Positions 693 to 48,276 of a DNA stretch of 52,767 bases are shown here, in pieces (position 1 is the stretch's first letter; every line of letters starts with the position of its first letter). The stretch comes from a virus (Duplodnaviria > Caudoviricetes). Position numbers and translations under genes: made by a program. Under the pieces are notes generated by a model. It did no database searches. It was not told the DNA's origin and saw only the letters and a list, made by a program, of their open reading frames with translations. The stretch covers positions 1-52,767 of the IMG/VR virus record IMGVR_UViG_3300042319_001969; one strand, written 5' to 3'.

Positions 693-1127
693 ATGAATCC
701 TGCAGAAAAGTATAGGCTTTATGAAATCTTATTCTATTTATATTTTAATAGACAAGATGATACTACAATCAGTAATCAAAATTACTGGAATCTTATTAAA
801 AGCATATGTGACTTTTATGGAGTCAATATGGCTTTAGTAAGTAAAGCTTTACGATTATTAACAAATAATGACAATAAACCTTCAGATTTAGAAATAGTAT
901 ATTTACTTAATAAAGCCGGAGTTTCAGTTAGACCTTTAAACAAGATATCGGGCATTTATTGGCAAAAACAAAAAGAACATTTATTAAATATTGCTAATAC
1001 CTCACCGCCCTATATATTTCCAAGAATAACCGATACAGCTACTAAAGTTAATATTGAATCTTTTATAAAAGCAATGTATAATATAGGTAGTATATTTAAT
1101 GTATTAGACCAAGATTTAATCATGTAG
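693..1127 (+). CDS. Hypothetical protein
   Basis: 144-aa ORF, strong SD AGGAGG. Confidence 0.85.
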   Translation: MNPAEKYRLYEILFYLYFNRQDDTTISNQNYWNLIKSICDFYGVNMALVSKALRLLTNNDNKPSDLEIVYLLNKAGVSVRPLNKISGIYWQKQKEHLLNIANTSPPYIFPRITDTATKVNIESFIKAMYNIGSIFNVLDQDLIM

Positions 1128-1138
1128 GAGGAAAAAAC

Positions 1139-1381
1139 ATGAGTAATAAAAAGCCAAATTACGAAAAAATTTCTAGAAGTTTAGTCGCAGAATTTGTTAA
1201 AATATTTGGAGATTTTCCAGTAGCTACACTTCTTTTAAGATTAGGTTGTTCTTATACAGACCTTATTGCTTTAGGTATAAATAAAGAAGACGCACATTAC
1301 GCTATGTTAGAAGATGTTATTCCAAAAGGACCGACCCAATCTCTTGAATTAGAAGTTGTAGATGAAGAGGACATTGACTAA
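1139..1381 (+). CDS. Hypothetical protein with acidic C-terminus
   Basis: 80-aa ORF with SD AGGAGG; coupled to the next gene. Confidence 0.8.
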   Translation: MSNKKPNYEKISRSLVAEFVKIFGDFPVATLLLRLGCSYTDLIALGINKEDAHYAMLEDVIPKGPTQSLELEVVDEEDID

Positions 1382-1767
1382 TGTTTGAAGAATTGTTTCA
1401 AACAATGGAATTTTCAAATACTTCTGAAAAATTAAAATTAAAAATTTTATTTGATGAGTATATGAAAGGAATCCCAGATAATTTTTATTTAAATCAATTT
1501 GAATTACAAGCTAAATATTTAGGTAGTCAATACCAAGATTGGTACAAGCTACTTACTCATACACCATTTAAAACCTTTAAAGATAAACAAGTTTCGATTA
1601 TAGTCGAAACTAATACAAACAAAGCTTTAGGTGGTCAAATGGACTTAGATAAAGACGCTTTAAACTTGCTTAAAATGAAAAAAGATATTGTTCAAGCGCA
1701 AACAGGTTCTCAAAAACCTATAATCTTAGTTATCCCAGAAAGTCTATATTTTAAGGAGGAAAAATAA
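1381..1767 (+). CDS. Hypothetical protein
   Basis: 128-aa ORF, TAATG overlap with the upstream stop. Confidence 0.8.
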   Translation: MFEELFQTMEFSNTSEKLKLKILFDEYMKGIPDNFYLNQFELQAKYLGSQYQDWYKLLTHTPFKTFKDKQVSIIVETNTNKALGGQMDLDKDALNLLKMKKDIVQAQTGSQKPIILVIPESLYFKEEK

Positions 1768-1768
1768 A

Positions 1769-2065
1769 ATGACAGACTTAGTTAAACAAATTGAAAAATG
1801 GGGAGAATTACGAGGTTTAAACACCTCAGACCCTACTCGTCAATTTTTAAAATTAGCAGAAGAAGTAGGCGAATTAGCAGCAGCAATGGCTAGAAATAAC
1901 AGAGATGCCGAAGTAGATGCTATTGGAGATATCTTTGTAGTTCTTACTATTTTATCTAAGCAATTAGGCTACGATGTTACATCTTGTGTTCAAAAAGCAT
2001 ACGATGTTATTAAAAACAGACACGGTAAATTAGTAAATGGTGTTTTTGTTAAGGAGGAAAAGTAA
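1769..2065 (+). CDS. mazG: MazG-like nucleotide pyrophosphohydrolase
   Basis: KLAEEVGELA...DAIGD motif; single-domain size (98 aa). Confidence 0.9.
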   Translation: MTDLVKQIEKWGELRGLNTSDPTRQFLKLAEEVGELAAAMARNNRDAEVDAIGDIFVVLTILSKQLGYDVTSCVQKAYDVIKNRHGKLVNGVFVKEEK

Positions 2066-3378: not shown

Positions 3379-3385
3379 AAAAGCT

Positions 3386-5194: not shown

Positions 5195-6137
5195 ATTTGA
5201 CACTATGACTAAGTTAGAATCGAAGCTTTCTGTGTCCGTCTATGGACCAGCCGGAAGCGGTAAAACGACCTCAGCCTTTAAATTGGCTATGGGGATTCGT
5301 GACCAACTGTATCCAGGCAAATCCCTTAAAGACATTGGATTATTTATCGACACGGAAAGAAAGTCTTCAAGTAAATCGGTAGGCCGAAACGTAGGCGGTG
5401 AGACGTTAGAGGCCATGGAGGTTTATCATTTTGAAGCCCCCTTCGATATCTACAAATACGCGCAACTAATAGAATATGCTGTAAGCCAAGGTAAGAAGAT
5501 TATTGTTACCGATAGCTTTACCCCTTTTTGGAGTGGTACTAGTGGCATACTTGACAATGTTGCAGAATTAGAAGTCTCTCTAGCGGGAGCAAAAAAAGCC
5601 TACGGTGCTTGGAGCGAGAAAGCCATAATCGCTAAAAAGAACCTGTTGAAATCTGTCGTGTCTAACAGTGCTGCGCACATGATATTCTGTTATCGTGCTA
5701 AAACAGAGTATGATATTACTAAAAACGACAAAGGTCGTACAGTAATTAATGTTATTGGAGTTAAGGAAGACATGCAAGGTGATGTTCCATACGAACACGA
5801 TATTGTATTTAGTGTTGACCGTGAAACTCATAACATTCGTATTATTAAAGACCGAATTGGCTTTGCGGAATATCGTATGACACGCACAGACTCTGAAGCT
5901 CCCATTGTTATCTCAGACGGTAAAGAATTAGCCAAGATTGTCTCAGAAGGTGTTACTTTACAAGAAGTAATTGCTAGAAAGAAATCTAAATTAATTCAAT
6001 TCATTTTAGAAGAAAAAGCACATAAGTCTTCCAAGGTTAGCCTGCTAGAAAAGGCAAAAAACATGGAATTAACTGACAGCTTACTCAACGGAATGGATTA
6101 CGAAGTTTTGACAAAAATTGTCGAAATGATTAAATAG
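5184..6137 (+). CDS. Sak4-like/AAA_24 P-loop ATPase (putative single-strand annealing recombinase)
   Basis: YGPAGSGKT, FIDTER, IVTDS; immediately upstream of an SSB-like gene. Confidence 0.8.
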   Translation: MEFEFDTMTKLESKLSVSVYGPAGSGKTTSAFKLAMGIRDQLYPGKSLKDIGLFIDTERKSSSKSVGRNVGGETLEAMEVYHFEAPFDIYKYAQLIEYAVSQGKKIIVTDSFTPFWSGTSGILDNVAELEVSLAGAKKAYGAWSEKAIIAKKNLLKSVVSNSAAHMIFCYRAKTEYDITKNDKGRTVINVIGVKEDMQGDVPYEHDIVFSVDRETHNIRIIKDRIGFAEYRMTRTDSEAPIVISDGKELAKIVSEGVTLQEVIARKKSKLIQFILEEKAHKSSKVSLLEKAKNMELTDSLLNGMDYEVLTKIVEMIK

Positions 6138-9471: not shown

Positions 9472-11574
9472 ATGAGTCATCATGAAATCTTAGCGAACTA
9501 TCAATTTATAATTATTGATAGTTTAGCTAAGGCTAATGAAATTTTAAATAGTCTTCCTACAAACATATCTATTTTAGCTTTTGATACCGAAAGTAATACC
9601 AAAATTGATATGACTAAGTCAGATGGTTCTACTATTGACTTAGGTAATGACTTGCCTATATTATTACAATTTGGATACGACAATGTAGTGTACATCGCAG
9701 ACTTAACAGTTTCTGATGAACTTACAAAGTCTGTATTTAAATTATTTGACGAAATGTGTCTAAGAAGTACGTTTGTGACCGCCCATAACATTAAGTTTGA
9801 CATTAACATGTTGTGGAATAAAGGCTATGTATTTCATACTACTAATGCTTGTGACTCTATGACTGTAGCTAGATTAGCTTTAGAATCTAAAACCGAACGT
9901 GAAGGTGGTTACCCTATGGGTTTAAAACCACTAGCAGCTAGATTATTAGGTTCAGCTTACGCTAATCTAGGCAAACAAGTCGACGCTGAACTTAGCAGAC
10001 TCTGGACTGAAAAGCTTAAACAATTAAGAGATTTACTTAAACCCTATGGGGTATCTAGAGCTCAAATAGATGAAACTCTAAAAGATGTAACAGGTTCTTT
10101 AGAAGAATACTCTTTAGATGTACAAACAATTTGGGTTAACTGGATTATTAATTCTAAAATATCTTATGCAGATTTAGACCGTAAGTTGTTACTTAGCTAT
10201 GCGGGAATGGACGTAATTATTGTTTTAGAGCTATTTAGACTATTACTTCCTAAAATTGCAGACAAAGGTATGTTAAAAGTGCTACGTATGGAAATGAATC
10301 TTATTATGCCATTAGTACGCATGGAACGTACAGGATATGTTGTTGATAAAAAGTATCTTATTCGTTCAAAGCAAGCACTTATATTTGAAATTAATAGTAT
10401 AAAAGCTATTAATGATAAGTTGTTAGGAGTTTCTTTAACACCTAATCAACATGCTGAAATTAAAAAAGCTATTAAAGCTAAATATGCCTATGACTTAGAA
10501 AATACTGATAAAAAGTCTTTACACATTAAAATGATTACTGATAAGACTATGCCTAATGAAGTTAAACAGTATTTAGAAAACGTTATGTATCTAAGAACCT
10601 TAGAAAAGTTTATATCTACGTATATTAATAGTATGCTATATAGACTTAATAACTCTAAAGATAACAAGGTTTATACCCAATTTAACAGTGCCGGTGCAGT
10701 CTCAGGTCGTTTTACTAGCAACTTTCAACAGTTTCCTAAAGAAGCTGTCTATTCAAAACTAGGTAACTTTGAGTTATTTCATCCTCGTAAGATGTTTGTA
10801 ATAGAAAGTAACGAATACCCAGTATTAGCCTATGTTGATTATTCACAAATTGAGTTGCGATTACAAGCAGAGTATACTCACCGCTGTACCCAAGGTCAAG
10901 GCGATGTTAATATGCTTAGAGCTTACATACCATTTAGATGTGTTCAAAAAGATAGTAAATATTATTACGAAGAAGACCTTACTAAAGAATGGACACCTGT
11001 TGACGTACATACTCAAACTACACTTATGGCTTTCCCAGACATTGACCCTAAATCAGATGTATTTAAGAAACTACGTAAAGTAGGTAAGCAAGTTAACTTT
11101 GCTATTATTTACGGAGCTAGTTTAAAGAAAGTACAAGAAACTTTAGCAGATACAGACCCAGACGTAGTTAAAAAATTATACTATGGATTTGGTCAAGCTT
11201 TTAAAGACATTAACGCTTATCGTTTATGGATTAAAAAAGAATATGGGTATAACGGTTATGTTGAAAATCTTAAAGGCCGTAGATACTTTATTGAAGAGCC
11301 TAGAGACGCTTACAAATTAAATAACTATGTTATTCAAGGCAGTGCCGCAGACATTTTAAAAGAAGTAATTTGTAAAATTGATGAGTACTTGCAAAATAAA
11401 AAGAGTAAATTGCAAGCGTGTATTCACGATGAACTTTGTTTTGTAATTCATAAAGATGAGCAAAATATCATACCAGAAATTCAACAAATTATGGAAAACA
11501 CATATAAAGGTATAGTTCCTTTAACAACTGAAGCTTCTATTAGTAAGACAAGTTGGGGAGATAAACATGAGTGA
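9472..11574 (+). CDS. polA: DNA polymerase family A with 3'-5' exonuclease
   Basis: FDTES, HNIKFD, YAGMD; GRFTS, DYSQIELR, KQVNFAIIYG, NYVIQGSAAD, IHDEL. Confidence 0.95.
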   Translation: MSHHEILANYQFIIIDSLAKANEILNSLPTNISILAFDTESNTKIDMTKSDGSTIDLGNDLPILLQFGYDNVVYIADLTVSDELTKSVFKLFDEMCLRSTFVTAHNIKFDINMLWNKGYVFHTTNACDSMTVARLALESKTEREGGYPMGLKPLAARLLGSAYANLGKQVDAELSRLWTEKLKQLRDLLKPYGVSRAQIDETLKDVTGSLEEYSLDVQTIWVNWIINSKISYADLDRKLLLSYAGMDVIIVLELFRLLLPKIADKGMLKVLRMEMNLIMPLVRMERTGYVVDKKYLIRSKQALIFEINSIKAINDKLLGVSLTPNQHAEIKKAIKAKYAYDLENTDKKSLHIKMITDKTMPNEVKQYLENVMYLRTLEKFISTYINSMLYRLNNSKDNKVYTQFNSAGAVSGRFTSNFQQFPKEAVYSKLGNFELFHPRKMFVIESNEYPVLAYVDYSQIELRLQAEYTHRCTQGQGDVNMLRAYIPFRCVQKDSKYYYEEDLTKEWTPVDVHTQTTLMAFPDIDPKSDVFKKLRKVGKQVNFAIIYGASLKKVQETLADTDPDVVKKLYYGFGQAFKDINAYRLWIKKEYGYNGYVENLKGRRYFIEEPRDAYKLNNYVIQGSAADILKEVICKIDEYLQNKKSKLQACIHDELCFVIHKDEQNIIPEIQQIMENTYKGIVPLTTEASISKTSWGDKHE

Positions 11575-12876: not shown

Positions 12877-13916
12877 TGGATATAACTTTATATAACAGTT
12901 ATGGTATTATAGATAAAGGTTCTGAAATTGAAATAATTCCAGTTCCTAAAGACGAATCTGACTGGAAAAAAGACCGTAAAAAAACTATAGGTGGTTCTGA
13001 AGCAGCAGCTATATTAGGACTTAACAAGTACTCCTCACCGCTTAAAATCTACCGAGCTAAAACCGAAGACAACGAACATGCACAAGACATGCTTGGTAGA
13101 TTGCCTAGTGTTAAAAAAGGTAGAGAATTAGAAGGATGGATTTTAGACAATAAAGTTAAACCTTTATTCCCAGAATACAACCTTATTAAGCCAGACCATA
13201 TGTTTAAAAACATTAACTATCCTTGGTTAATGGGTAACTTAGATGGTATTGGTACTTTAAAAGATAAAACTTACAACGCTTTAAAAGATACTATTGGTAT
13301 TGAAATAAAGTTAATTACCGAATACGGTGAAGCAGCATGGAACGGTCCTGATTACGAAGGTATTCCATCTTATTATTATGTTCAAGTTCAAACATATATG
13401 GCAATTACAGGTATAGAAGTATTTTATGTTTGTGCTATGTTTGAATCTAATTGGGAATTAAAAACTTATAAAATTCCTAAAGATTTAGATTTTATTCATA
13501 TTAGACTATTGCCTGAAACTAAAGATTTTTACAATAATCATTTGTTAATGAATATTCCTCCTACTCCTACTCCATCTATAGATTCTGATGAAATTACTAA
13601 TATTTTACCAGACATCGAAAACACTCCTACTGTATCTAGCGAAGAACTAAATAAGATGTTAGAAGACTATAACTCATTAGATGGTGTTATTAGAGCTTCT
13701 GAACTACGTTTAAACATTTTGAAGGATAACATCGTAACTAAATATATCGAAGGCGCTAGACCTACAGAAACATCTAAATCTATTATATCTTACTCAAAAG
13801 TTACACGACCAGCGTTTGATTCTGCTAAATTTAAAGAAGAAAACCCTGATTTGTATCAAAAATACATTAATCCATCTACTTATGTTAAATGGAATATTAA
13901 AAAATCTAAAAAGTAA
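12876..13916 (+). CDS. YqaJ-like (lambda-exonuclease family) recombination nuclease
   Basis: IGGSEAAAILG.NKY, GRELE, GNLDG, EIK, YYYVQVQTYM. Confidence 0.9.
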   Translation: MDITLYNSYGIIDKGSEIEIIPVPKDESDWKKDRKKTIGGSEAAAILGLNKYSSPLKIYRAKTEDNEHAQDMLGRLPSVKKGRELEGWILDNKVKPLFPEYNLIKPDHMFKNINYPWLMGNLDGIGTLKDKTYNALKDTIGIEIKLITEYGEAAWNGPDYEGIPSYYYVQVQTYMAITGIEVFYVCAMFESNWELKTYKIPKDLDFIHIRLLPETKDFYNNHLLMNIPPTPTPSIDSDEITNILPDIENTPTVSSEELNKMLEDYNSLDGVIRASELRLNILKDNIVTKYIEGARPTETSKSIISYSKVTRPAFDSAKFKEENPDLYQKYINPSTYVKWNIKKSKK

Positions 13917-13956: not shown

Positions 13957-13993
13957 TTTCTGGTCTCCTTTTACGCCTTTGGGCGGTGAGGAA

Positions 13994-16900: not shown

Positions 16901-19447
16901 TTCAGTAACCTTACTAGGAACAGTTGCTGGATTATAATTACGTTTAACAAATTGTAAAGGACTGACTTGACCAGCAGCAACTTTAGTAGCATCTAATTCG
17001 CTTTTAATTAAAGTTTGAATTTTTTTACCGGTTAAACGGTCAATAACCTCAAGTTCAGGAAAATCTTCTAAAATTTTACGAATAACAGCTTCTTCTTTTT
17101 GAGCAACTGCTAATATTTCTGGAGTTATTTCCACTAATCCACTTCTTATAGCTCTTGTAGCTGCAAAAGGAATACTTTCTAAAAAAGACTTTACTAAAGT
17201 GTTTGGAGGTAAAATATCTCCTATTTCTTTAGAAACAGTTTCAAAAGCATCAGAAGAAAATCCACTTCCTGTCACACTTACAATTTTTTTATTTAAATTA
17301 CTTAAATTGTCTGATAATTCATCTAAAGCAAAAACAATACTTCTAGAAAAATCATCTCCTAAAGATTTACCTTTAGATAAGATTTTTTTAGCATACTTAG
17401 AATTCATTGCTTTAACAAAAGACTCAGTAGAAGCTTTGTAAGCTTCATAAGTATTTAAAATTTCAAAACGTTTACCTGCTTTGCTAACTCTTTTAATTGA
17501 AGGAACTTCTTCTAAAAAAGAAACTTTAATAAAATCGTCTAATCCTTTAACAAAAAAATAAGCTTCATTATATTTAGATATAAAATCAACAGCTTTAGCC
17601 ATTTCAGGGTCTATAATAGATAAATTTTTTATATATTGAGTTCTTGCAACTTTGTTTGTTTTAGGTATTCTATTAAATTCTTTTAGTATTAATTTGTTTT
17701 TGCGTTGGTATTCCCAAGCTTTTTTATAATTAGATATTAAAGAATCTATATCTTTTTCTGCCCAACCAAAAGCTTCAAATATTTTTGTACGAAACTCTTT
17801 AACTCCGACTTTACGTCCTAAAGAAGTTTCTATGTTATTTTTTAAAACAGCAACCCAAGAATCTACATATCTTTTAACAGGAGCATATTGTTTTAAAGGA
17901 TAATATTGACTAGGTCTAACAATAAATCTTTCAGTTCCTCCAGATTTAAGATATGTAAAACTATTTCCTTCAAACTCTTCTAAAATATTTAAAACTTTAT
18001 TTTGAAGAGCTTCTATTTCTGGATAATCTAACACAGAACCATCCCAGTTTTGTTCTACGTATCTATCCCATCCACCTGCTTCTTTAATTTCTTCAAGTAT
18101 AGGACGAATTTCGTCGTCATCTATTTGTTTTAAAGCATCTTCTATTCTATCTGACGTAATAACATTTTGATTTACAAAAGAACCGGAAGGAGCGGTGAGA
18201 GGCATTCCTTGACCTCCTTCAACACCTTTTATTCCCATAACAACGTTACGCCCACCAATGTTTTCAACTTCGGTATATTTACCAATGTTTTTAACTTGGC
18301 TTTCCATTGTAGGCGCACCTAAATCTTGAACTTCTTTAACAGCATCTTCGTATGTTGTAAGTTCAGGAACATTTTTAGCAACAGGTTCAACTACGCTATC
18401 TGTAACCTTAGGTTTAGCTTCTAGTTTAGCAACAGCATCTGCTACTTCTTCAACAGCAGGGTTAACAACATCTTTAGGTTTATAAGATTGTTTAACTTTT
18501 TCAACCCCATTTTCTACAAATTGTGTCAAATTATCTTTAGGAGCAACAGGTGCTGCTGCAACCTTAGGTGCTTTTTTAAGTCCTTCTTGAACTGTTTTAG
18601 CATTTTTAACAACAGGAGTGCCTTGAGGTAATAGTTCTTTACGAATAATAGGCGCTGGGATATCAGGGCCTTTAGGTTTAAAAGTATCTGCAACAGTTTT
18701 AGCTGTAGAATCTTTAGTAGTTACGTTTACAACGTCTTTAGATTTATCCCAATTTAATATTTGTCCGGCTTTACCTAAAAACTTTTTAGCAGCAAAAGTA
18801 GAACCTGGGGCTACTGCATTCCAAGCTAACATAGCCGCTGCATCATCATAGTCAGACATTAATTGTCCAACTTGACCTAAGTTTTTAATAATAGGTTTAG
18901 TAGATTTAGTTCCAATTCTTGCTAAAGTACTACCAAGAATACCTGGGTCAGTAGCTAAATCAATAGCTAATCCACCAAGAGTAGGTAAAAGTCCTTTTAA
19001 ATCTTCATCTGTTATTTGTTTATTAGGGTCTTTACGAGATTGATTGAGTAAATTTTTAATTAACTCTTTACCTTCATAAGGCCTATCTTCTAAAAATATT
19101 TGTTCTATAGGATTATTAAATCCAGTAGGGTCTGTAGCTTCTATTAACGTTCCTAACAAAGCGTCGTCTGCTTTATCTAATGAACGACCAAAATATCCAA
19201 GCACACCCATTGCAGGTCCAAGAATACCTTTACCTTGTTTATTTCCCCAAGCATTAGTTATGCCTTCAATATACCCTGCTGGAATATTTAAAATGCTAGG
19301 TCCGTATTTATTACTTAAATACTCTCTAGCAGCTTTATTAAATATAGGGTCAAACATGTCATCAATATAATACCCGGGTGTAGATGTTACACCTTGAGGT
19401 CCTTCTTGAAGACGTGGAATTATTTCATTAAATTTATTAATAGCCAT
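13994..19447 (-). CDS. Large virion protein, probable internal core/ejection protein (1817 aa)
   Basis: Largest ORF, at the end of the structural arm, position typical of podovirus ejection proteins; no catalytic motif recognised. Confidence 0.6.
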   Translation of the reverse strand: MAINKFNEIIPRLQEGPQGVTSTPGYYIDDMFDPIFNKAAREYLSNKYGPSILNIPAGYIEGITNAWGNKQGKGILGPAMGVLGYFGRSLDKADDALLGTLIEATDPTGFNNPIEQIFLEDRPYEGKELIKNLLNQSRKDPNKQITDEDLKGLLPTLGGLAIDLATDPGILGSTLARIGTKSTKPIIKNLGQVGQLMSDYDDAAAMLAWNAVAPGSTFAAKKFLGKAGQILNWDKSKDVVNVTTKDSTAKTVADTFKPKGPDIPAPIIRKELLPQGTPVVKNAKTVQEGLKKAPKVAAAPVAPKDNLTQFVENGVEKVKQSYKPKDVVNPAVEEVADAVAKLEAKPKVTDSVVEPVAKNVPELTTYEDAVKEVQDLGAPTMESQVKNIGKYTEVENIGGRNVVMGIKGVEGGQGMPLTAPSGSFVNQNVITSDRIEDALKQIDDDEIRPILEEIKEAGGWDRYVEQNWDGSVLDYPEIEALQNKVLNILEEFEGNSFTYLKSGGTERFIVRPSQYYPLKQYAPVKRYVDSWVAVLKNNIETSLGRKVGVKEFRTKIFEAFGWAEKDIDSLISNYKKAWEYQRKNKLILKEFNRIPKTNKVARTQYIKNLSIIDPEMAKAVDFISKYNEAYFFVKGLDDFIKVSFLEEVPSIKRVSKAGKRFEILNTYEAYKASTESFVKAMNSKYAKKILSKGKSLGDDFSRSIVFALDELSDNLSNLNKKIVSVTGSGFSSDAFETVSKEIGDILPPNTLVKSFLESIPFAATRAIRSGLVEITPEILAVAQKEEAVIRKILEDFPELEVIDRLTGKKIQTLIKSELDATKVAAGQVSPLQFVKRNYNPATVPSKVTEEKLTQAVNEVLTTPTKELPPIVPNATVPDPIKAAQKTLEAGPVEEALNTAIETAMKQQYPTTPVSFAKEVDVYRTTTKKETLFSRLSRAITTSSNVVSKNFSASLDNPKVREIIAKIASIKDIPMVKRFIKSMDEAQPYISKKQTVLVDLIKSNGFKLTVVKDAAERAALRKQLQKLANLVNEAARKMGATGDILLLNKENPDNIVGIFLNESVDGFQNYFTKIAKSQIDGKFIFDEDILWYNNKGAKAFAEEGAEAALLKQTYAEGIDEVRKHVTKLGHKDELDALLENGTPYLHHTAVANDKLSKKMLGSFVYLDKTGKQVVMNVEELGKYSNSMGNYLNLNKKFRSIFTGRSYEGPMSLFQDNELGKLFEDDDLAKIMNGTLSEGVLANKNYQLFLNLFENDNLKVSKMFNSSKELKAALFAVDPITKSVGGNVNQLDVLIPVYKDGTLKSFKRVDKFSDKALEEAFSTGEAVLLPSTLYAPLDRLLKKDAILSNKAYLILNKYFTLPFKFGVLTNPAFPIGNINDAFFKTATELGAKYDRSFVETSIKTTGAMIDVVKLENTMTDIVENFLKTWGKPGELFTPQMLIKDGKARKRFFEYLDAGASSKLITPEQAEQFKSISMLYMLMNRVQDTTVTNFFSKKMLDRLKAFDLEQYGIGQELSKGLDAVDVISKYSVQTNAFEKIIYGNKKTFGLFFNNPINNGIMAASSSIENMMRSAHILAILKEEGIIEEIGKRSPGIKKSLFGDSEKLNIAFQNAANSMNAAHFNYDNITDLMAGISTVIPFPTFMVKNLGFWLNKAIENPQIIDNVISVHENLWDDKNKAAQKDEFLAEAKGRGAVPALGSLFKPTPYGSLFSAFDTLNNPVPNLAYRLNPLTKILTQAALPSEDVKYRPYTTDVYTPNVKRGDPNFSYMRYLLQSANPFERQIQSALRLPSKLEQGNIQPADVLPSVFQPDFSNKKRKK

Positions 19448-21894: not shown

Positions 21895-22810
21895 GACTTA
21901 AAGGAAGAACCTTAGCTTTCATAGCTAAGTACTTATCAAAAACTTGTTGAGCTAACGTTAAGTTATACACATAAACGTTTTCTACAACGGCTTTACCGTG
22001 TGTAATACCAAAGTAAGTGTTCATTCCTAAAGTTGCCAAAGAAGTAATAATGTTTAATAATAATCCTATATTAAATTCTACAAAACTAACTAGTAATGTA
22101 TTCATAAAAATACTAAGAATTAGTCCGTATAGTAATTTGCCAAATCCTTTGTTTAAATCAAATAAACTTCTATATTCAAATCTATCATCTAATCTAATTA
22201 CATCTGGATTAACATTAGTTAAATGTATTCTTGTATAAGGTTGAAAAAAGAAAACTCTAAGGTTATCCATATTTTCTGAAGTATATTCTTGAGACTTTAA
22301 ATATAAATACTTTTCTTTAAGTCTTGGATACAATCTTAAGGTGTGCTTTTTAATAAACTCATAACGAGACGTAGCTGGGCGTTCTTTAATAAACAATTGA
22401 ACCAACCGGCGGTGAGTAATTAATGCTTTTGCAGTTGCAAACCAATCTAAATAGAATAGTTTACGATTAATCTTGTTTATCCATGCTTGTATACGACGTT
22501 CTCTGTTTAATTCAATTAAGAAGTCATCAAAATCTTCTTCTAGCTTATTTAATACAATAAATTCTACTACTTCTGCTTTTTTGACATATTTTGTATTAGA
22601 AATCTTTTCTGCATCTACTGTATTACGGCTAGCTATATACCATGCCATAATATGAGTAAACGTACTAGAAACAGTAAGGAACCAAAAATCTGCTGAAGTA
22701 AAGACATCTAATCTAAACCCTACAGCTACAATTTGAGAAAATATATTTACAGCAACAAAGATTATTGCCATAAATATACTTATAAATAGCCCAAATAAGT
22801 TTCTTTTCAT
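21866..22810 (-). CDS. Integral membrane protein (2 TM + soluble domain + 2 TM)
   Basis: Hydrophobic helices at both termini. Confidence 0.75.
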   Translation of the reverse strand: MKRNLFGLFISIFMAIIFVAVNIFSQIVAVGFRLDVFTSADFWFLTVSSTFTHIMAWYIASRNTVDAEKISNTKYVKKAEVVEFIVLNKLEEDFDDFLIELNRERRIQAWINKINRKLFYLDWFATAKALITHRRLVQLFIKERPATSRYEFIKKHTLRLYPRLKEKYLYLKSQEYTSENMDNLRVFFFQPYTRIHLTNVNPDVIRLDDRFEYRSLFDLNKGFGKLLYGLILSIFMNTLLVSFVEFNIGLLLNIITSLATLGMNTYFGITHGKAVVENVYVYNLTLAQQVFDKYLAMKAKVLPLSLDKSLTNNV

Positions 22811-29077: not shown

Positions 29078-32000
29078 TATTCTTCTCCTGGTAATGTTCT
29101 ATATTTATAATATACCACATAAATTTTAAATTTAGTAACGCTGTTTCCTGTAATAACGTGTCTAAGAGTTTTACCAAAACCATGGTGTCTAATACGTAAT
29201 TCTTTTAAGGTATTAATAATCTGTGAGTTATTTGTGTCAAATCCAGTATTTAAAACAGCTAAATCATCTAGACTATCATTCCAAAACGGAGAATCAGTTT
29301 CTACAGCTTTGTGAGCTATTTGTTTATGTCCATCTGTGTATACGTCTAATGTAACAGGTATTACTTCTTTAGAACTCTTTAAACCAAATGTAATTCTAGT
29401 TTCAACAAAGTTCTTTTCATACCCCATGTCATCTGACTTTTCACCGCTATCAATTTCAAACGAAATAGGAGTCACGGCGGTGAGTTCCCCGATTAATGGA
29501 TATTCTACATTTAAAACGTCACCGTATCCGATAATATCCACAAAAGCATCTGGGAACTTTTTATTAAAGTAGTATTGTTTACCATTAATATCTGTAATAA
29601 TAATGTTTTGAATATTATCAATAAACACTTGTTTAACTCTAATTGTGTATTCCATTAAAGTAAACACTCTAGTCCCATAATCATATTTTATTAATAATGT
29701 TTTGTCAGAAAGTGTCAAAAATATACCGTAATATGTTTCAGTAGTAAATCCAATAGTATCTAAAGGTTCTAAGTTTAATAATTCTCCTACAGGTTTGGAC
29801 AACTCAGATATGCTCAATATAGAATCTACTGATGAATTTGGATTTGGAGATAATGAAAATATCTTGCTACCATTTTTAAATAGTAACCCATTTAAAATAG
29901 GCATTAAAGTATTTCTATCAACTTCTGAAACCCCTGTAAAGGTATTAACAGCTTTATTTGTAAAACCATTGTTTATTTTAGTAATTAAATAAATAGCATT
30001 ATTAGTTGCTGCAATTAAATAGTCTCTCCAAGGAACCAAGCTGTTAACTTTGTTATCTTGACTAGCATCTAAGTCTAATACATTAGTTAAAGGAAATTCA
30101 AATGAATCTGTTTTAGAAACTAAAATGTTATTTTTAAATCCGGAGTTTCCAAAAGCGTATAGTGCTTTTTTATAATTTAATAATCCTAAAGCTTTACTTG
30201 GTTTTTCAATAACCACATTATCTACAACTACTTCGTTTGATAAAAGACTTGCAGTTTCTAAAAAACTTACAGTTTTTATGTTATTAATTTGATTTCTATT
30301 TATATAAGCTATATGACTACCTTTAAATAATAAAGAATGAACGCTAGTTCCTACCACATATTCGTATTCATTACCACTTCTATGGTAATTTACAGAAGAA
30401 GCAGGATAGCTTGTAAAATAAAATACTTTTTTAGCATCTTCGTAAACAAATTCAGATTTATTTTTAACAGTGTAGCAACTGTCATAAAAACTTTTAACAT
30501 TAGGTCTTTCTACAGTTAATTGAGTTGACACTGCAAAATTACCTACTTCTTTAACTTTAAGTACCGTATCTACAGTAATAAATTCATCTGTTAAAGAAGT
30601 ACTTCCTTCTCTTCCTAATAGACTATAATAATGCCCATAATTAACATCAGTTATTCTAGAGTTTCTAGATTCAATATCTGTACTTACAGATAAAAGATTT
30701 AACCAAGTAACATATGGTTGCTCAATCATAGTTGTAATAGATTTTAATGTTAACCCTGAGTTTTGCATTACGTTATTGTAAACATCAGTGTTATAAACTT
30801 TAGAAATGTTTACTTCTTGTTTAGGAACACTAATAACATTTAAATTATTTTTGTTAAGTAAAGCATAGTTTGGTTTAGTAAATACTGCTAAGTTTGAAAA
30901 TATATTATCAATTGTGCTTAAAGTATGAAGAGAAGAAACATATTGTCCAGAAATAGTATCTGCTATTTTTGTAGCAATAACAGGACTGCTTACTATTTCA
31001 TAGCTTTGATAAATAGAGTTGTTAAAACTAATATTAAAACCATCTACTTCTAAATTAGCATTAAAAGCATTGTGGTCAATTTCATTTATATTTGATAAAG
31101 TAAATCCACTTAAGCTAGAATTAATATAATCTTGTTTTTTAATACTTTTTGAGCTTAGCCCATAAATTTTATATTGGTCTTCTTTAATCACATCTAATGT
31201 AGGATTAATTTCTGTAAAGTCTCCATATAAAGTACTATTACCATTTATACCGGTATTTAATTTAGACGGTTCATTTGTAATTTCAGACCCTGAAGTTTTA
31301 GTTTTAATATTCCAAGGAAACACTGCCCAGGGTAATTTTTTCCAATTAGTAACGTAAAGGTTTTTAATTTTATGAGGAATATTAGGAAATTCTACTGTTA
31401 CAGTTTCAATACTTGAATCTAATAAAGTTGTAGAAGTTCCACTTTTTCTTAAATATTCAAATCTAATGTTTGGGCTTGGAGCTCCTGGGTATCCTGCTTG
31501 ATATTCTATTTCAGCACGAATAAACCAATTATTTCCTTCTAAAGTATATTGTGTAGTTTTATCTTCTTGTAAAACACTAATTTCTTGCAAATTGTTTTTA
31601 GTTTTTCTAATAGCTTCATTTTGTGCTACGCTTAAAAGAGGTAAAGTAGTTAAACCAGTATCTAAAAATACTTTAAATCTTTCTTCTAAATCGCTATTGC
31701 TTATAGGATTATAAGAAGAAAAACTATAAGGTCTAAGGTCATTAGTATTGATACCTAAATCGCTACTTCTATTAGTTGCAGTAGAAGGTGTAGTTTTTAA
31801 ATCTTGAATGTAAGTTTTATTTTCTTTACCTTCAATAATTTCATAACTAGGTAAAGCATATACCACAAATCTACGTGTTTTGTTATCCGATTTTACAAAT
31901 AAAACATCTGGTCTATTTAAAACATTATCTGCATCTGAAAATAATTCAAATGGAGTAACATTAATGCTTTTTAATTCTGATGTTACATCTACTTCATCTT

Positions 32001-37049: not shown

Positions 37050-38918
37050 TCATTGTTGTGGCATCTTTTTTGCCGGTAATTGCCCAAGTGTAGACGCTTG
37101 GATTTGAGCAACTACTTCTTGCACCGCTTGTTCTACAGGCATGCCACCTTGAGTCAATGTGCCTACGGCGGTGAGAACTGCTGTATACTCTTCAAGTTTT
37201 AAGTTTTGATATTGAAGAGCCATACGGTCGATAATAGCTTGACGTTGTGATTGAGGTATATTTAACCATTGAATTACTTCTTCTGGTGTAATAATACTTG
37301 GGTATCCTTTTTCTGCAGGAGAGTATTTCATTTCTAATTCCATTAATTTCATTGCAGCTTCTTCGTAACTAGCTGTAGTACGAGGAGCAGCATTTTCTAC
37401 AACGATTTCAATATCTTCTCTGCCAATTAATTCCATAGGGTCAAATCGCATTTTTACACCCATATCATCATGGCTGTTATTTTGTTTAGCAAAGAAATTT
37501 TCTGGAGTTTTTAAATTTGCTAAATAGAATTGTAACATTAATTCTATTTCTTTGCGAATAAATACATCTATGTTTTTAATACGAACGCTGTCTCGCATTG
37601 TAGAACGATTAACAGCTTGTTGAACACCACCAGTAGTTTGAATTGAACCAAAGCTACTTCCTAAATATATTTGGTCGACTCCTGAAACTTCTTGGATACT
37701 ACGAATTAGATATTCTCTAAATTGTAGCAAATCTCTAGAAACTTCTGGACGAGCTTCAGTATATACAACTTGAGTTGGGTTACCATTAACAGTAAACGCT
37801 CTATCTGGATTTTCTTTTTTACGTTGATATTCTGCTACGTTTAATCCTGACGCTGCGTTAATAAACTGTGCAGGGTTTTGATTTTTAATAATTGAAGTTG
37901 CTTGAATAGAATCAATTTCGTTTAAGCTCATTACTAAACTTAACACTTTATAGCATTTAGAAATGCCCCAAAAATTATTTGGGATTTCTTCATCATAAAG
38001 TGGAACAAATGGAATAGTTGAAGGTTGAATGTCTTTAGAAATATCTAAGATGTGACGCCCTGCCATATAAATAATATCCACGCAAGGATATAATCGCATT
38101 TCACCAGTAGTTGGGTCTGGCTTCATTCTCATTAATCTTTTATAAGCAGTAATAAATGTGACAACATTATTACTTCCATTTTTAGCTTCGTCTAAAATAT
38201 AATTGCTGTCAGGTTGTCCAATATTTTGTGAAGAGTATTCAATATTAGCAATTGAATTACTAAATCGAGCAATTTGTTTTAAGAATTGTTTTGTTTTACG
38301 TTCTGCAATATATAAAAATTGAGCTTCATCAATACTTGCAGCGCCTGGGTCTGGAAATAAATTAGATGGGTGAAGTGCTTTAGCTTGAATCTGTGATTTT
38401 TTACTTTGATTAAAATAACCAGTGTAATCAGTAGCATCAATTATATTTTGGTTCCATCCAAATAAAACACCTGCTGTTCCGTGCAAGAACGCATAGTCTC
38501 CAGCTTGTGCATTAATAGAGTCCATACTAGCAGCTTGCCATTTCATTTGCATATAACGGTTAGCTGTGTCTGCAATTTTTTTGCCTTCTAAAGTCATTGG
38601 TTTAAACATGCCAGCATAAGCAGTAGGCATAATGCTTGCTTTAGTTGCTTCTTTAATAACAGTGATTGGATTGTTTGTTGGAGTTTGATAATACGCTGGA
38701 ATTTTTTTATTGTAAATTTTCCAAATGTCAGAATGGTCTGCCGCATCTAAAATTTTAAATACACGAGCTTGTTCAACTTTGTAAGCAATCGCATCTTCGA
38801 ATTCACGAATTAAATCTTCAACCGTGTATTCCGTAATACCATAAGCCTTTAGAATTTCTTCTGAAGTTGTAGTTTGTTGGGAATCAGCAATTTGCTTCTC
38901 GTATTTACTTGTGTCCAT
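37050..38918 (-). CDS. Portal protein (P22/podovirus-like)
   Basis: LFPDPGA, IPFVP, FWGIS, IQEVSGV..IYLG, TTGGV; between TerL and scaffold. Confidence 0.85.
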   Translation of the reverse strand: MDTSKYEKQIADSQQTTTSEEILKAYGITEYTVEDLIREFEDAIAYKVEQARVFKILDAADHSDIWKIYNKKIPAYYQTPTNNPITVIKEATKASIMPTAYAGMFKPMTLEGKKIADTANRYMQMKWQAASMDSINAQAGDYAFLHGTAGVLFGWNQNIIDATDYTGYFNQSKKSQIQAKALHPSNLFPDPGAASIDEAQFLYIAERKTKQFLKQIARFSNSIANIEYSSQNIGQPDSNYILDEAKNGSNNVVTFITAYKRLMRMKPDPTTGEMRLYPCVDIIYMAGRHILDISKDIQPSTIPFVPLYDEEIPNNFWGISKCYKVLSLVMSLNEIDSIQATSIIKNQNPAQFINAASGLNVAEYQRKKENPDRAFTVNGNPTQVVYTEARPEVSRDLLQFREYLIRSIQEVSGVDQIYLGSSFGSIQTTGGVQQAVNRSTMRDSVRIKNIDVFIRKEIELMLQFYLANLKTPENFFAKQNNSHDDMGVKMRFDPMELIGREDIEIVVENAAPRTTASYEEAAMKLMELEMKYSPAEKGYPSIITPEEVIQWLNIPQSQRQAIIDRMALQYQNLKLEEYTAVLTAVGTLTQGGMPVEQAVQEVVAQIQASTLGQLPAKKMPQQ

Positions 38919-40904: not shown

Positions 40905-41369
40905 TTAGTTTGGTTTACTTGGAGTAATTAAACCAATCTTTTTGTTAATCAACACGTCGACTGATTTTTCTTCTATGCCGGCTTCTAAAAGAATTTCTTT
41001 TGCTAACACCACAGCGGCAATTCGATTAGTTTCGTTATTACGGGCGGTGAGCAGAGTGTCTTCTTTGCCTAAAGCTGCATCAATGGCTTCTTTAGCATTC
41101 TTGTGAGCTTCGGAATCTTCGAATACTTGTTTAGTTGGAAGAATTCTTTTTAGGAATTTACCGAACACACCATTCCAATGGTCATGCACAGGGACTTTAC
41201 CGTTTTTTTCAATCAGAGAAATAGAATACGCTTCTAGCACTCCCATGAAAATTGACGTAAACTCTTCTGGTGTAAACATTGCTCCAATGAATTTAATCTT
41301 AACATTGTCGACATCGTCCGTCTTAAGCGTAACGTGTATACCGCGGCTTTCTGCTTTCTTCTTTGCCAT
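40905..41369 (-). CDS. Hypothetical protein upstream of TerL (terminase small subunit by position only)
   Basis: 154 aa, SD AGGAGG. Confidence 0.6.
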   Translation of the reverse strand: MAKKKAESRGIHVTLKTDDVDNVKIKFIGAMFTPEEFTSIFMGVLEAYSISLIEKNGKVPVHDHWNGVFGKFLKRILPTKQVFEDSEAHKNAKEAIDAALGKEDTLLTARNNETNRIAAVVLAKEILLEAGIEEKSVDVLINKKIGLITPSKPN

Positions 41370-41900: not shown

Positions 41901-41965
41901 ATAGTTAATCATACCTCACCGCCATTGTCAACTAAAACTTGAAAGCAGTTTCACACATTTAACAA

Positions 41966-43436: not shown

Positions 43437-43437
43437 A

Positions 43438-43990
43438 TGCTTGAAGGCTCATAGCGCGTAAGGCCTTCGGCACAGGGAATAATCCTATGGATTCGGCTTA
43501 TTAATTTGCTCACTAAAGTCGTTCGCAATTAAACGCCTCAAGATTTTTTGTTCACTACACCCGTATCCGCATAGACTTCGGACTAAACCGTCCTGCGTTC
43601 TCTGCTACTACCGGTTCCGTTCACAATCAAAGCTAACGCATAGTCCACCGCATTCTCTATCCTCGACAACTCTTCGCTAAAGGCTCGATTGTCTGCGGGC
43701 GGTGAGATTACTACGCGCCGAGAACACCTTTCGTTTCATTACGCTAAACCGCTTCATTACACTACAGGTAATCTCTTTGCTTGTAATGTAGTGTAAGCGC
43801 TAGGCTTACGCATAACTCATTCAGTCCCAGAAATGCCTGCCAAATGCAGTCAGTTCTGGTCCTTGATGAGGTAAACATTTAAGACACTACAGCCGTCCGC
43901 CCGTTCGCTAAACCGCTCACTACGCTACCGAGCTTCCGTGTCTTTAAATGTTACAAAGGCTTACAAGTTTGTCTGCGCACGCGCATCCAA
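43438..43990 (-). other. Large GC-rich structured non-coding element (ncRNA or ssDNA structure)
   Basis: At least 7 hairpins with recurring GA/GA and GAA/GTA internal loops and TTTA-containing loops on the - strand. Confidence 0.75.
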
Positions 43991-45463: not shown

Positions 45464-45476
45464 AAGGAGGAAATGT

Positions 45477-45818: not shown

Positions 45819-46053
45819 TTATACGAATTTTGTCAAAAAAAGTCGCTATGCGTAGAGAATTTTTCTCTATATATAATACATTTTTTTAAAAAACTACTAT
45901 ATAAATATATAATTTATTAACTAAATAATATATAAATTAAGTCTTTTGACAAAAAGTGTATAAAAAAACTAAAGTTGAGGTAGTGTGCGTCTCTCTCTTT
46001 TTGTGAGCGACGACACACACTCACAAAATATATTCATATAGGAGGAAATAAAT

Positions 46054-46425
46054 ATGAATAAAGGTAGTCGTGAATTAGCCGTGACGGTTTTGTCTTTGAC
46101 GAGTCCAGCGAGGATTGCTCAAATTGCTAAAGAAAAAGCATTGAATCCTCAAGAAGTCTATGTGAGAGCAACTTGCGAATACGCAGGTAAAACTTTCACA
46201 GTTTCTAATAAGCTTCGCTTTCTAAGTCAAGATGGTTATACCAAATTGATGAATGCTAAGCAAAGCAAAGAAACTATTAATATTGTGATTTCGCCTGCGG
46301 CAGATAATATTAATTATTATTTTTATTTAGAAAATACCGCAGTAGATGTTGCTTCGCTATTCAAAGAACCAGTTAAGCAACCAGACATTCGCGTCAAAGT
46401 CGAAGACTTATATAAGAATTTGTAA
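46054..46425 (+). CDS. Hypothetical protein
   Basis: 123 aa, SD AGGAGG. Confidence 0.8.
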   Translation: MNKGSRELAVTVLSLTSPARIAQIAKEKALNPQEVYVRATCEYAGKTFTVSNKLRFLSQDGYTKLMNAKQSKETINIVISPAADNINYYFYLENTAVDVASLFKEPVKQPDIRVKVEDLYKNL

Positions 46426-46440
46426 CCTTCATCGGTAGTT

Positions 46441-46479
46441 AAAAGGCTTTAGGTTTTCCGTAACTTAAAGCCTTTTTTT
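46441..46479 (+). terminator. Rho-independent terminator
   Basis: AAAAGGCTTTA/TAAAGCCTTTT + T-run. Confidence 0.8.
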
Positions 46480-46500
46480 TATTCTAAAAATAAGGAGGCT

Positions 46501-48276
46501 ATGAATGTGGAATTCAAAGCAATGGTATTAAACGAAGCTGGAGATAGCTATGCTATGGATAGCGATTTTAATTTTACTAAAGATAGTACTAAGGGTATAG
46601 TGTTCTCTTTAAACACAGATTCAAGCGTTGAAGATTTCATTAATTATATTATGAGTATGCTTAATGAAAAAGAAGACACTTACACAGTTGAAATTTTTTC
46701 AGATGTTAATCCTAACTCTTTTGGAAAATTGACTTTTAATAAATCTATGCTTTCTGCCTCATTTGATGTTAAAGCTGCCACAGATGAAAGAGCTTTTGGT
46801 AAATTTATAGCAGAAAATATAGCACAAGCTATTAAAGATATCCCAACCACTAGTATTCTTTCAGGTATTTCAGAACTTATGGAGGCTGCTGCTAAAGGCA
46901 GTTCAAGAACCCCTAGTTCAAAAGACCCAAGCTTAAGCGAAGATGAGCAATTCATAGAAAAAATTAAAGACTTTACTAAAACAGATATTGTAAAGCCAAC
47001 AGAAACTATTGTAGATTATATAGCAGATGATGATTTACTTGATGAACTAAAAGAAATTATTGACTTTCAAAACAATTCAGATAAATACTCTAAGTTAGGT
47101 ATTGAAATACCTAAAGGCGTATTATTCAAAGGTCCTCCAGGTACTGGTAAGACCTATGCTGCTAAATGTATTGCCGGTAGTAGTAATAGTTATTTTATGG
47201 TAACTACTGCTAGTGCCTTACAAGGTCAATATATTGGTAGTGGCGCCGAGAATATTCGTAAAATATTTACAGGCGCTAGAGAGCTAATTAAAAAGACAAA
47301 GAAAGGTGTAATGATATTCATAGATGAGCTTGACTCATTCGGTAGTCGCACAAGCCATTCGGGAAGCGCAAGCGGTGAGGAAGACCGAACCCTTAATCAA
47401 TTGCTTGCCGAGTTATCTGGATTTAATCCAACCGATAAGATAATGGTGTTAGCTGCGACAAACTTTGTAGAGCGTTTAGATGAAGCGCTTTTAAGAAGTG
47501 GCCGTTTAGGTCGCCAAATTACTATTGATTATCCTACAGAAATTCAAAGACGCCATTTAGTAGACTATTATTTTAAGAAATTTAAGTTACACGACACAGG
47601 TACAGATATTATTTCAGACTTAGTTGACGGCTTATCCCCTGCGGATATAAAAGCCGTTTCTAATGAGTCTGCTATATTAGCAGTCCGTAACTCTCGTGAA
47701 GAAATTATGCTTGACGATATTAATGAAGCGATTAACAAAACTATTACTAAGAATGTTAAACGAAAAGACATTAAGAAAGACAAGTATTTAGTTTCAGCAC
47801 ACGAAATGGGACATGTCTTAGCAGAAGCTTTGTATCTAAAGACTTGCCCATTAAAAGTCACAAATGATACTTATGGAGACTCAGGAGGATTTACTCAAAC
47901 AACAAATCACTTAAGTGGCATTACAAAACAAGAAAGGTATTCTGCCGAAGTTAAAATGTTAATGGCAGGCCGTGCCGCAGAGCAAGTGATTTGTGGATAT
48001 ATAACTAACGGAGCAAGTAGTGACCTTCAAAGAGCTAATAAACTTGTAAAAGCCTATTTTCAGGTTTATAACTTTGAGCCCTATGATGTGTCAAAACTTG
48101 ACCAGTTAGTACAAGACAAAATTCATAGTCTTTATACGGAAACCGTAAAAGATTTTGAATTACACAAAGACTTGCTTAAGTCTTTGACAGACGAGTTGAT
48201 GACTAAGTCTACTATTTATCGTTCATTGTTAGCTATTCTATTATCTCCAGTGTTAACTAAAGGAGGAATTTTATGA
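46501..48276 (+). CDS. ftsH: FtsH-like AAA+ zinc metalloprotease (M41) lacking transmembrane anchors
   Basis: GPPGTGKT, pore YIG, IFIDELD, TLNQLL.E, ATN..LDEALLRSGR, HEMGH, MAGRAAE, GASSD; hydrophilic N-terminus. Confidence 0.9.
   Translation: MNVEFKAMVLNEAGDSYAMDSDFNFTKDSTKGIVFSLNTDSSVEDFINYIMSMLNEKEDTYTVEIFSDVNPNSFGKLTFNKSMLSASFDVKAATDERAFGKFIAENIAQAIKDIPTTSILSGISELMEAAAKGSSRTPSSKDPSLSEDEQFIEKIKDFTKTDIVKPTETIVDYIADDDLLDELKEIIDFQNNSDKYSKLGIEIPKGVLFKGPPGTGKTYAAKCIAGSSNSYFMVTTASALQGQYIGSGAENIRKIFTGARELIKKTKKGVMIFIDELDSFGSRTSHSGSASGEEDRTLNQLLAELSGFNPTDKIMVLAATNFVERLDEALLRSGRLGRQITIDYPTEIQRRHLVDYYFKKFKLHDTGTDIISDLVDGLSPADIKAVSNESAILAVRNSREEIMLDDINEAINKTITKNVKRKDIKKDKYLVSAHEMGHVLAEALYLKTCPLKVTNDTYGDSGGFTQTTNHLSGITKQERYSAEVKMLMAGRAAEQVICGYITNGASSDLQRANKLVKAYFQVYNFEPYDVSKLDQLVQDKIHSLYTETVKDFELHKDLLKSLTDELMTKSTIYRSLLAILLSPVLTKGGIL

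Follow-up and report, generated by a model that had tools for sequence, protein, structure and literature searches.

What reads a short, GC-rich DNA word that recurs over an entire phage genome without regard to reading frame? The question is raised by the window, our term for the whole stretch of DNA analysed here, which is the complete IMG/VR virus record IMGVR_UViG_3300042319_001969 (52,767 bp). From its letters alone, an earlier note had picked out 13 dispersed copies of a GC-rich octamer and proposed a selected signal acting at the DNA level: a host Chi-like site, a programmed nick site, a priming site, or a binding site for a DNA-organising or ejection protein. Here we report that the word, which reads RGCGGTGAG in the window (R, purine) and RGYGGYGAG across a family of related phages (Y, pyrimidine), is almost certainly a real, selected and phage-lineage-specific DNA recognition word. 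Of the functions listed, the programmed nick site is the closest known analogue; priming, or binding by a DNA-organising protein, is less likely. Why phage DNA carries site-specific nicks has been unsettled since their discovery in T5 in the 1960s, according to a report on phage tf (PMC3517423).

A nine-base word in excess of chance

The 9-mer RGCGGTGAG is present in the window in 13 exact copies, nine of which begin with G and four with A, around the 8-mer core GCGGTGAG (Table 1); the coordinates and strands that the earlier note had given for them are all exact. It had also put the GC content at roughly 30%, which computes to 33.5%, and the chance expectation at well under one copy, which stands: a third-order Markov model predicts 0.21 copies and ranks GCGGTGAG as the top over-represented 8-mer of the window, and dinucleotide shuffles give 0.33 copies on average, with 0 of 100 shuffles reaching 13. 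When up to one mismatch to RGCGGTGAG is allowed, 16 matches are found, 13 of them exact, against 5.0 expected in total, which places the near-misses at chance level. The one-mismatch variants that had been reported are present at 25984 (-), 29440 (-) and 45329 (+).

The excess persists when the encoded proteins are held constant. For this codon-aware null, synonymous codons were shuffled 1,000 times within each open reading frame (ORF), the ORFs being those of a simple caller, uncurated. Shuffled versions of the window held 3.24 copies on average, three of which are the fixed intergenic sites, and at most 6, against the 13 observed; for six relatives, introduced below, the means were 0.22-4.0 against 8-14 observed copies. 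The observed count was reached by 0 of 1,000 shuffles in each of the seven genomes.

Ten of the window's copies lie within genes, eight with the word on the template strand (four read as L-T-A, two as T-H-R and two as S-P) and two with the word on the coding strand (G-G-E and S-G-E). The codons of the ORFs thus bear out the LTA, THR and SP frames described earlier. Rare codons are used at the sites, including CTC (2% of Leu codons in the window), ACC (11% of Thr), GCC (8% of Ala), CCG (6%), and CGC (8%) and CGG (1%) of Arg. We counted as an opportunity each position at which a suitable choice of codons would yield the 8-mer with the protein sequence unchanged. The window realises 8 of 12 such opportunities in template orientation and 2 of 18 in coding orientation, and the seven genomes together realise 46 of 112 and 22 of 135. 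Window codon frequencies predict chance realisation at far below one in 100 opportunities.

The word is also sharply bounded. A weight matrix built from 91 sites of ten records holds information solely at positions -1 to +8, plus a weak A at -2 (56 of 91 sites), and position -1 is G in 83 sites, A in 8 and never a pyrimidine. In the mismatch spectrum of the G-first 9-mer, each of the seven genomes has 8-13 exact copies, 1-4 copies with one mismatch and 17-82 with two.

Relatives carry lineage-specific variants

Relatives were found by searches with the large terminase (TerL) in IMG/VR, in metagenomes and in two metagenome-assembled genomes (MAGs) labelled uncultured Clostridia, and seven further records of 20-55 kb plus fragments were compared. 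They share a common gene order, and their core proteins are 30-65% identical. Two of them, G007:C4 (53.9 kb) and G008:C2 (54.6 kb), are whole genomes of this phage family present as MAG contigs. Their GC contents of 43% and 35% match those of their respective MAGs, 42-45% and 33%.

Each of the seven near-complete relatives has GGYGGYGAG, in one variant per genome and 8-14 copies, as its most over-represented oligomer. The window's own variant, GGCGGTGAG (13 copies), recurs in L001 (3 in 9 kb) and L181 (7 in 18 kb). GGTGGCGAG is found in G001 (8), G002 (11), G003 (10), G008:C2 (8) and L174 (3), and GGTGGTGAG in G004 (13, or 14 with a copy that begins with A), G005 (8-10), G006 (3) and G007:C4 (10-11), as well as in the fragments L016 (3-4), L180 (6) and L185 (4). 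A further variant, GGCGGCGAT, occurs 4 times in the 7 kb of L014, a 7,097-bp viral contig of 46% GC. By lineage, the variants differ at two or three positions of the word.

In a TerL tree the motif-bearing sequences form one clade with 100/100 support, and the variants largely track its subclades; the exception is G007:C4, which carries GGTGGTGAG and stands beside L014 with GGCGGCGAT, apart from the other GGTGGTGAG genomes. The 14,122-bp viral contig L004 (60% TerL identity) has 0 copies of any variant; its own top outlier is a palindrome, CGAATTCG, with 3 sites. No variant is enriched in outgroups at 33-37% TerL identity, among them Paenibacillus phage API480. A limited literature search turned up no published description of the family or the word, and the literature matches to three of the 9-mers were, among those listed, all primer-like, with none on phage signals.

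Wobble bases follow the variant, and sites are conserved

Two sites are fixed in position across the family, in the AAA_24 and FtsH-like genes. Both lie on the coding strand and encode Gly-Gly-Glu, or Ser-Gly-Glu in the window's FtsH-like gene. In the AAA_24 codons GGY GGY GAG, both wobble bases are those of the genome's own variant in 7 of the 7 genomes that hold the gene. The FtsH-like position likewise shows the variant of its own genome in six records, and in L181 as well. The window's FtsH-like site reads AGC GGT GAG, so that it departs from the rest at a first codon base as well. At the same position the motif-less L004 has GGT GGA GAA, the codons expected from composition.

The peptide at this site is itself widespread. 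A 17-nt pattern at the FtsH-like site matched 111 viral contigs, and among the 80 listed three are family members; in the others of these 80 the same AAA+ peptide is encoded by many unrelated phage genes, with no genome-wide enrichment of the word. One contig, L135, has four copies within 1 kb, two of them inside a Gly/Glu-rich coding repeat.

The remaining sites are common to closer relatives and turned over among distant ones. Conservation was followed in 13 pairwise genome comparisons. Six same-variant pairs at about 77% nucleotide identity kept 2/2, 2/3, 6/7, 6/6, 5/7 and 5/5 of their sites, against a background of 14% of all aligned 9-mers fully conserved; five same-variant pairs at 68-74% identity kept 3/4, 2/5, 2/4, 2/3 and 1/2, where the background was 4-12%. 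In the two pairs whose genomes differ in variant, the word was kept at 0/2 and 0/4 positions, the shared positions carrying the other genome's variant. L181 (85.6% identity, background 35%) keeps 5/5 of the window sites in 32855-50750, with differing flanks. Conservation of the sites thus lies far above that of background 9-mers and, judged from these alignments, the sites are under purifying selection.

The earlier proposal of a selected signal is upheld: 13 exact copies are found where fewer than one is expected by chance, and close relatives hold their own variant. Neither of the two outcomes that the earlier note had named as refuting it, loss of significance under a codon-aware model and a lack of conservation in related phages, was observed. 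That selection acts at the DNA level, independently of reading frame, follows from the codon-aware null, the rare codons, the conservation in relatives and the wobble bases that track the variant.

Spacing and strand polarity

The maps are circular, because contig starts differ between records and two records self-close with overlaps of 107 and 55 bp. The sites are spaced more evenly than at random: the summed coefficient of variation of the gaps is 4.11 against 6.16 for random placement, and 0 of 5,000 simulations were as low, a statistic that is not fully independent across genomes because the genomes are related. For the window alone, P = 0.012.

With all genomes in a common orientation, the sites split 69:19 between the strands in nine records and 9:4 in the window. 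Of the genic sites in the nine records, 53 lie in the late block beside the terminase genes and 25 elsewhere. In the leftward late genes, 40 of 79 template opportunities are used against 6 of 73 coding ones (Fisher P = 6e-9). The earlier statement that the word lies mostly on the template strand therefore fits the window, with 8 of 10 genic sites; across the family, strict polarity is a feature of the late block only. A polarity switch close to the TerL start is seen in 5 of 7 genomes, and a second switch point varies among genomes.

Three further candidate roles were considered and rejected. No pac-like cluster of degenerate copies was seen at the terminase genes, apart from a weak one in G004. 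For a promoter or terminator, the position of the sites was the reason for dismissal: they are found within genes, and their distance from gene starts varies. We take the word to resemble the ops element and the Shine-Dalgarno sequence; the RNA-level readings (a MazF-like target, an anti-Shine-Dalgarno-like word or an ops-like pause word) were set aside because transcripts of two gene blocks would bear opposite strands of the word.

Possible readers of the word

We tentatively favour a phage-directed nick site of the kind seen in T5, phiKMV and tf/LUZ24, to which, by analogy, we would give somewhat short of an even chance. RGYGGYGAG would be recognised by a DNA enzyme or binding protein that is sequence-specific and strand-aware; the reader would be the phage's own rather than the host's and would co-evolve with its sites; and a phage-directed nickase would make localized single-strand interruptions at the 8-14 sites of each genome. 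That a protein reads the word, that the phage encodes this protein and that the outcome is a nick are three points that we infer. In the tf report (PMC3517423), phage tf has 14 copies of the 9-mer TACT/RTGMC, each nicked and all on one strand, and a one-base variant recurs 8-9 times in its relatives, at comparable map positions and with few near-misses, for which the authors propose co-evolution of nickase and sites. The same text gives R/GCGCRGG as the consensus of the major T5 nicks, five copies of which lie on the strand without nicks, so that the consensus alone is insufficient; it describes phiKMV nicks as lying on the non-coding strand, being repaired early in infection and returning late, and it states that the nickases of T5, tf and phiKMV are unidentified and that every nick site of these three phages is on one strand (PMC3517423). 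The present family shares with such nick sites a short non-palindromic word, a few to about 14 copies and variants at similar positions, and departs from them in not having all its sites on one strand.

Several observations weigh against this reading. Pfam and PHROG searches of 44 window ORFs gave no HNH, GIY-YIG or other recognisable nicking enzyme; the nuclease-type matches in the window are the YqaJ/RecE-like exonuclease, a PHROG 'exonuclease' and a resolvase homologue. For the conserved proteins of ORFs 693-1127 and 1381-1767, the ESM Atlas rows were all below threshold. The opposite strand holds 4 of the window's 13 sites and 19 of the 88 sites of the nine records. The rightward genes show no orientation preference (6 of 33 template against 16 of 62 coding opportunities, not significant), 13 of these 16 coding-orientation sites being the two fixed Gly-Gly-Glu sites. 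In 5 of 7 near-complete genomes the TerL start has a minority-orientation site no more than about 100 bp away, which would not be expected from a simple nick model; in G002 such sites lie about 500 and 700 bp from it, and the window has none within 1 kb. Finally, the case against a host-encoded reader is only moderately strong, because the hosts compared are candidates and the link between MAG and phage comes from binning that uses composition. As for the identity of a phage-encoded reader, columns that split by variant were sought in 23 core protein alignments: 17 beat all 14 control partitions, three had none and three were matched by one control. The split follows phylogeny, and therefore no protein is singled out.

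The host-encoded alternative is a Chi-like site, at which AddAB or RecBCD switches from degradation to recombination, the phage accumulating the word to protect or recombine its linear or rolling-circle DNA; we consider it unlikely. The Chi-rich phages LLS, MD8 and P1 look much like the present family. According to a study of such phages (PMC12315714), these three accumulate host Chi, MD8 carrying the Pseudomonas Chi GCTGGCGC at 32:0; of 25 lambdoid phages with recombination genes and without an anti-RecBCD gene, 18 have at least four Chi sites on the top strand; and a single Chi serves phages across Enterobacteriales. The word has the Chi traits of being G-rich, asymmetric, strand-biased and the top oligomer of the phage, and at about one copy per 4-5 kb it is as dense as Chi in E. 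coli. The words also resemble RecBCD-type Chi: GGTGGTGAG and GCTGGTGG, like GGTGGCGAG and GCTGGCGC, have the core TGGYG in common, with the same T/C difference, which is a lead. No Gam-like nuclease inhibitor was recognised in the window, and the motif-less API480 has one annotated. Against these points stand the candidate host genomes, which were sampled from Clostridia only. In the E. coli positive control, Chi has 1008 copies per 4.64 Mb against 240 for the reversed word, and the phages hold their word at about 150-250 per Mb. MAG G008 (about 33% GC) carries 8 copies of GGTGGCGAG within the 54.6-kb phage contig and a single one in the remaining ~1.35 Mb; MAG G007 has 10 copies of GGTGGTGAG on its phage contig and 19 on the other ~2.45 Mb, against 18 for a control word. 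In forty further genomes of each MAG's family the maxima were 75 per 1.8 Mb and 40 per 2.2 Mb, and in 301 Clostridia searched with the degenerate pattern the five genomes of highest ratio to control reach at most 63 copies of one variant per 1.6 Mb. The word is thus not enriched in the candidate hosts sampled, namely the two MAGs, the 80 family genomes and the 301 Clostridia, which argues against the earlier suggestion of a host Chi. So do the presence of at least four variants in one phage family, with TerL neighbours that differ (G007:C4 with GGTGGTGAG, L014 with GGCGGCGAT), the phage's own recombination genes (YqaJ/RecE-like exonuclease, AAA_24, DUF669 and the resolvase homologue) and the even spacing of sites that are not clustered at one end. 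To our knowledge, nine nucleotides plus a preferred flank also exceed any known Chi, a word of 5-8 nt.

Polarity and spacing can instead be read as marks of replication, with the word as a start or loading site for the DnaG-type primase-helicase, or for recombination-dependent replication, on the discontinuously copied strand. Spacing of 4-5 kb that is more even than random, strict one-strand polarity across the 27-kb late block and a phage that encodes both a CHC2-zinc-finger primase-helicase and a family A polymerase all speak for this; in rolling-circle replication, moreover, one strand is the lagging template throughout. Yet the early half of the genome is without polarity, API480 has homologous primase and polymerase genes and not the word, and the signal is an exact 9-mer, not a short word of about 3 nt as at primase sites; the primases known to us read about three template bases, not nine. 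A replication signal therefore seems improbable to us. Distinctly unlikely, in our view, is a guide or binding site for a packaging, ejection or DNA-organising protein, whereby the polar word would orient or pace the terminase or an internal virion protein, much as KOPS (FtsK-orienting polar sequences) do for FtsK. It gains from the switch of polarity near the TerL start with the opposite-orientation site close by in most near-complete genomes, from the polarity of the block beside the terminase genes, and from several large virion proteins and a gene upstream of TerL that have no assigned function; it loses from the lack of pac-like clustering of degenerate copies outside the weak case of G004 and from the window's lack of an opposite-polarity site at the junction, and no terminase or ejection system guided by sequence in this way is known to us. 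A more speculative idea, rather unlikely though not negligible, is a phage-autonomous 'architecture word': a phage machine would read RGYGGYGAG directionally along the late half, its specificity shifting by one to three bases while about ten sites are rewritten. Candidates for that machine are the terminase, the RecE-like/Sak4-like recombination module and some further protein; if the idea is true, the word would be a phage counterpart of Chi or KOPS, neither a nick site nor a borrowed host signal.

To the question of what nicks are for, the uncultured family brings a natural comparative series, with at least four specificity variants, two position-fixed sites that report specificity and the seemingly word-less L004. 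If the sites are nicks, as we tentatively favour, the series could serve to find the nickase and to test the function of nicking; if they are not, they are a polar, genome-wide type of signal that no phage has so far been described to carry. Ranking the top outlier k-mer of each genome and comparing relatives can reveal such systems in metagenomic phages.

Genome organization around the sites

The window has three gene blocks, running rightward (1-13916), leftward (13994-41687) and rightward again (42312-52643). The leftward block encodes the large terminase, the portal, the major head protein, a tail-fibre-like protein and two very large proteins, one of 1817 aa and one of 1295 aa (Table 1).

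Table 1 Copies of the word and genes located in the window
Feature	Position	Strand or direction	Sequence	Location and remarks
Site	1001..1009	-	GGCGGTGAG	ORF 693-1127 (+); template strand, codons ACC TCA CCG CCC
Site	5394..5402	+	GGCGGTGAG	AAA_24 gene; coding strand, GGC GGT GAG = Gly-Gly-Glu
Site	10877..10885	-	AGCGGTGAG	Family A DNA polymerase gene; template strand, T-H-R-C
Site	13034..13042	-	AGCGGTGAG	YqaJ/RecE-like exonuclease gene; template strand, S-S-P-L
Site	13982..13990	+	GGCGGTGAG	Convergent intergenic; 30 nt past terminator hairpin 13923-13953, just before stop codon of 1817-aa gene
Site	18191..18199	+	AGCGGTGAG	1817-aa late gene (-); template strand, L-T-A
Site	22408..22416	+	GGCGGTGAG	Late ORF 21866-22810 (-); template strand, T-H-R-R including CGG
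Site	29476..29484	+	GGCGGTGAG	1295-aa late gene (-); template strand, L-T-A
Site	37167..37175	+	GGCGGTGAG	Portal gene (-); template strand, L-T-A; kept in L001 and L181 despite differing flanks
Site	41043..41051	+	GGCGGTGAG	ORF 40905-41369 (-); template strand, L-T-A; kept in L001 and L181
Site	41915..41923	-	GGCGGTGAG	Divergent intergenic, ~100 nt from tRNA-like gene 41737-41812; kept in L181
Site	43698..43706	+	GGCGGTGAG	Non-coding, GC-richer, folded stretch; kept in L181
Site	47371..47379	+	AGCGGTGAG	FtsH-like gene; coding strand, AGC GGT GAG = Ser-Gly-Glu
ORF	693-1127	+		No family match; homologues in six near-complete relatives and G006
AAA_24 (Sak4-like) ATPase gene	5184-6137	+
Family A DNA polymerase gene	9472-11574	rightward
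PemK/MazF-like ORF	11567-12022	+		Overlaps end of DNA polymerase gene
ORF	12019-12519	rightward		Matches API480 gene annotated 'resolvase'
YqaJ/RecE-like exonuclease gene	12870-13916	rightward
1817-aa late gene	13994-19447	-
1295-aa late gene	29077-32964	-
Portal gene	37050-38918	-
ORF	40905-41369	-		Next gene upstream of large terminase; no family match
FtsH-like AAA+/M41 gene	46501-48276	rightward
SNF2-type helicase				Rightward blocks
DUF669 protein				Rightward blocks
DnaG-type primase-helicase, CHC2 zinc finger				Rightward blocks
MoxR/CobS-like ATPase; vWA/CobT-like proteins				Rightward blocks

The copies that the earlier note had assigned to the convergent terminator (13982), the divergent region (41915) and a structured element (43698) are each located there. 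The terminator hairpin at 13923-13953 is bidirectional, and its arms are ACCCTATGG, a 9-mer with further sites at 9911, 10041 and 37433; the window has 5 exact copies of it against 0.14 expected under a third-order Markov model. Two related heptamers, CAGGGTC and AGGGTCA, are likewise over-represented in the relative G001. The divergent intergenic region holds a tRNA at 41737-41812 (-) according to Rfam (46.6 bits, gathering score 29), and ARAGORN reported none in the window. The third stretch, 43433-44217, is a GC-richer segment of about 0.8 kb without an ORF of at least 80 aa. Its part 43560-43860 folds more stably than shuffled sequence (z = -3.0), and in the minimum-free-energy fold the motif at 43698 appears paired with an upstream CCACCGC; the stretch could be a non-coding RNA.

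Among the genes, ORF 40905-41369 may be the small terminase, a candidate by position only. The PemK/MazF-like ORF 11567-12022 is kept in five relatives and was not found in G007:C4; no separate antitoxin was recognised, and one PHROG match labels its N-terminal part MazE-like. ORF 2066-3187 (+) matches PHROG 284 ('exonuclease') and has no homologue in any fetched relative. A conserved trio of FtsH-like AAA+/M41, MoxR/CobS-like ATPase and vWA/CobT-like proteins is encoded at 46501-52643 and 3-647 of the window; all motif-bearing relatives have it, and the outgroup API480 lacks it.

Among named phages, API480 and SV21, both of Paenibacillus, come closest, with a TerL about 37% identical, and the API480 homologues of the primase and the polymerase are 33% and 31% identical. 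Megablast of 20 kb of the window against 50,697 phage records gave no match. DNA of the window is contained in lake-water metagenome runs, 21 of which were found, and run X10 holds a strain roughly 5% divergent from the window.

Comparison with known systems

Among systems with sequence-directed features of this type, KOPS and SRS (SpoIIIE recognition sequences) are G-rich 8-mers that switch orientation at defined points of a replicon and are read by FtsK and SpoIIIE. They resemble the present word in being G-rich and skewed, at 8-9 nt here, and differ in being features of host chromosomes read by a host translocase; no such reader and no such host enrichment was found here.

The Chi-rich phages LLS, P1 and MD8, according to the published account (PMC12315714), likewise have a G-rich, strand-biased top octamer at about one per 2-5 kb. 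There, however, the word abounds in the host chromosome, whereas here it is not enriched in candidate hosts; their sites are clustered at one end, whereas these are even; and those phages are mostly without recombination genes, which are present here.

The nick-site phages, our favoured though tentative analogue, can be compared from the tf report (PMC3517423). Phage tf and its relatives PaP3, LUZ24 and phiMR299-2 are closest in layout: a non-palindromic 9-mer in 8-14 copies per podovirus genome of 45-50 kb, with convergent transcription units, variants among relatives at similar map positions and rare near-misses, as in this family. The words themselves are unrelated, and the tf sites occupy one strand only, whereas about one-fifth of those described here lie on the other strand and strict polarity is limited to the late block; in tf the nicks have been shown physically, whereas the present sites are candidates read from sequence. 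T5 and BF23 also have a purine-preceded GC-rich word (R/GCG in T5, R-GCG in the window) at a few to a dozen sites, but T5 is a 122-kb siphovirus without detected kinship, and here the exact word explains the whole signal. The phiKMV-like phages are podoviruses with nicks on the non-coding strand, and the late-block sites of this family lie on the template strand; their consensus, CGACxxxxxCCTA/CTCCGG, differs in being longer and bipartite and has 3-4 sites only. Set beside these described cases, the family is distinct in the use of both strands, a polarity restricted to the late block, at least four natural specificity variants and the filling of about half of the late synonymous opportunities.

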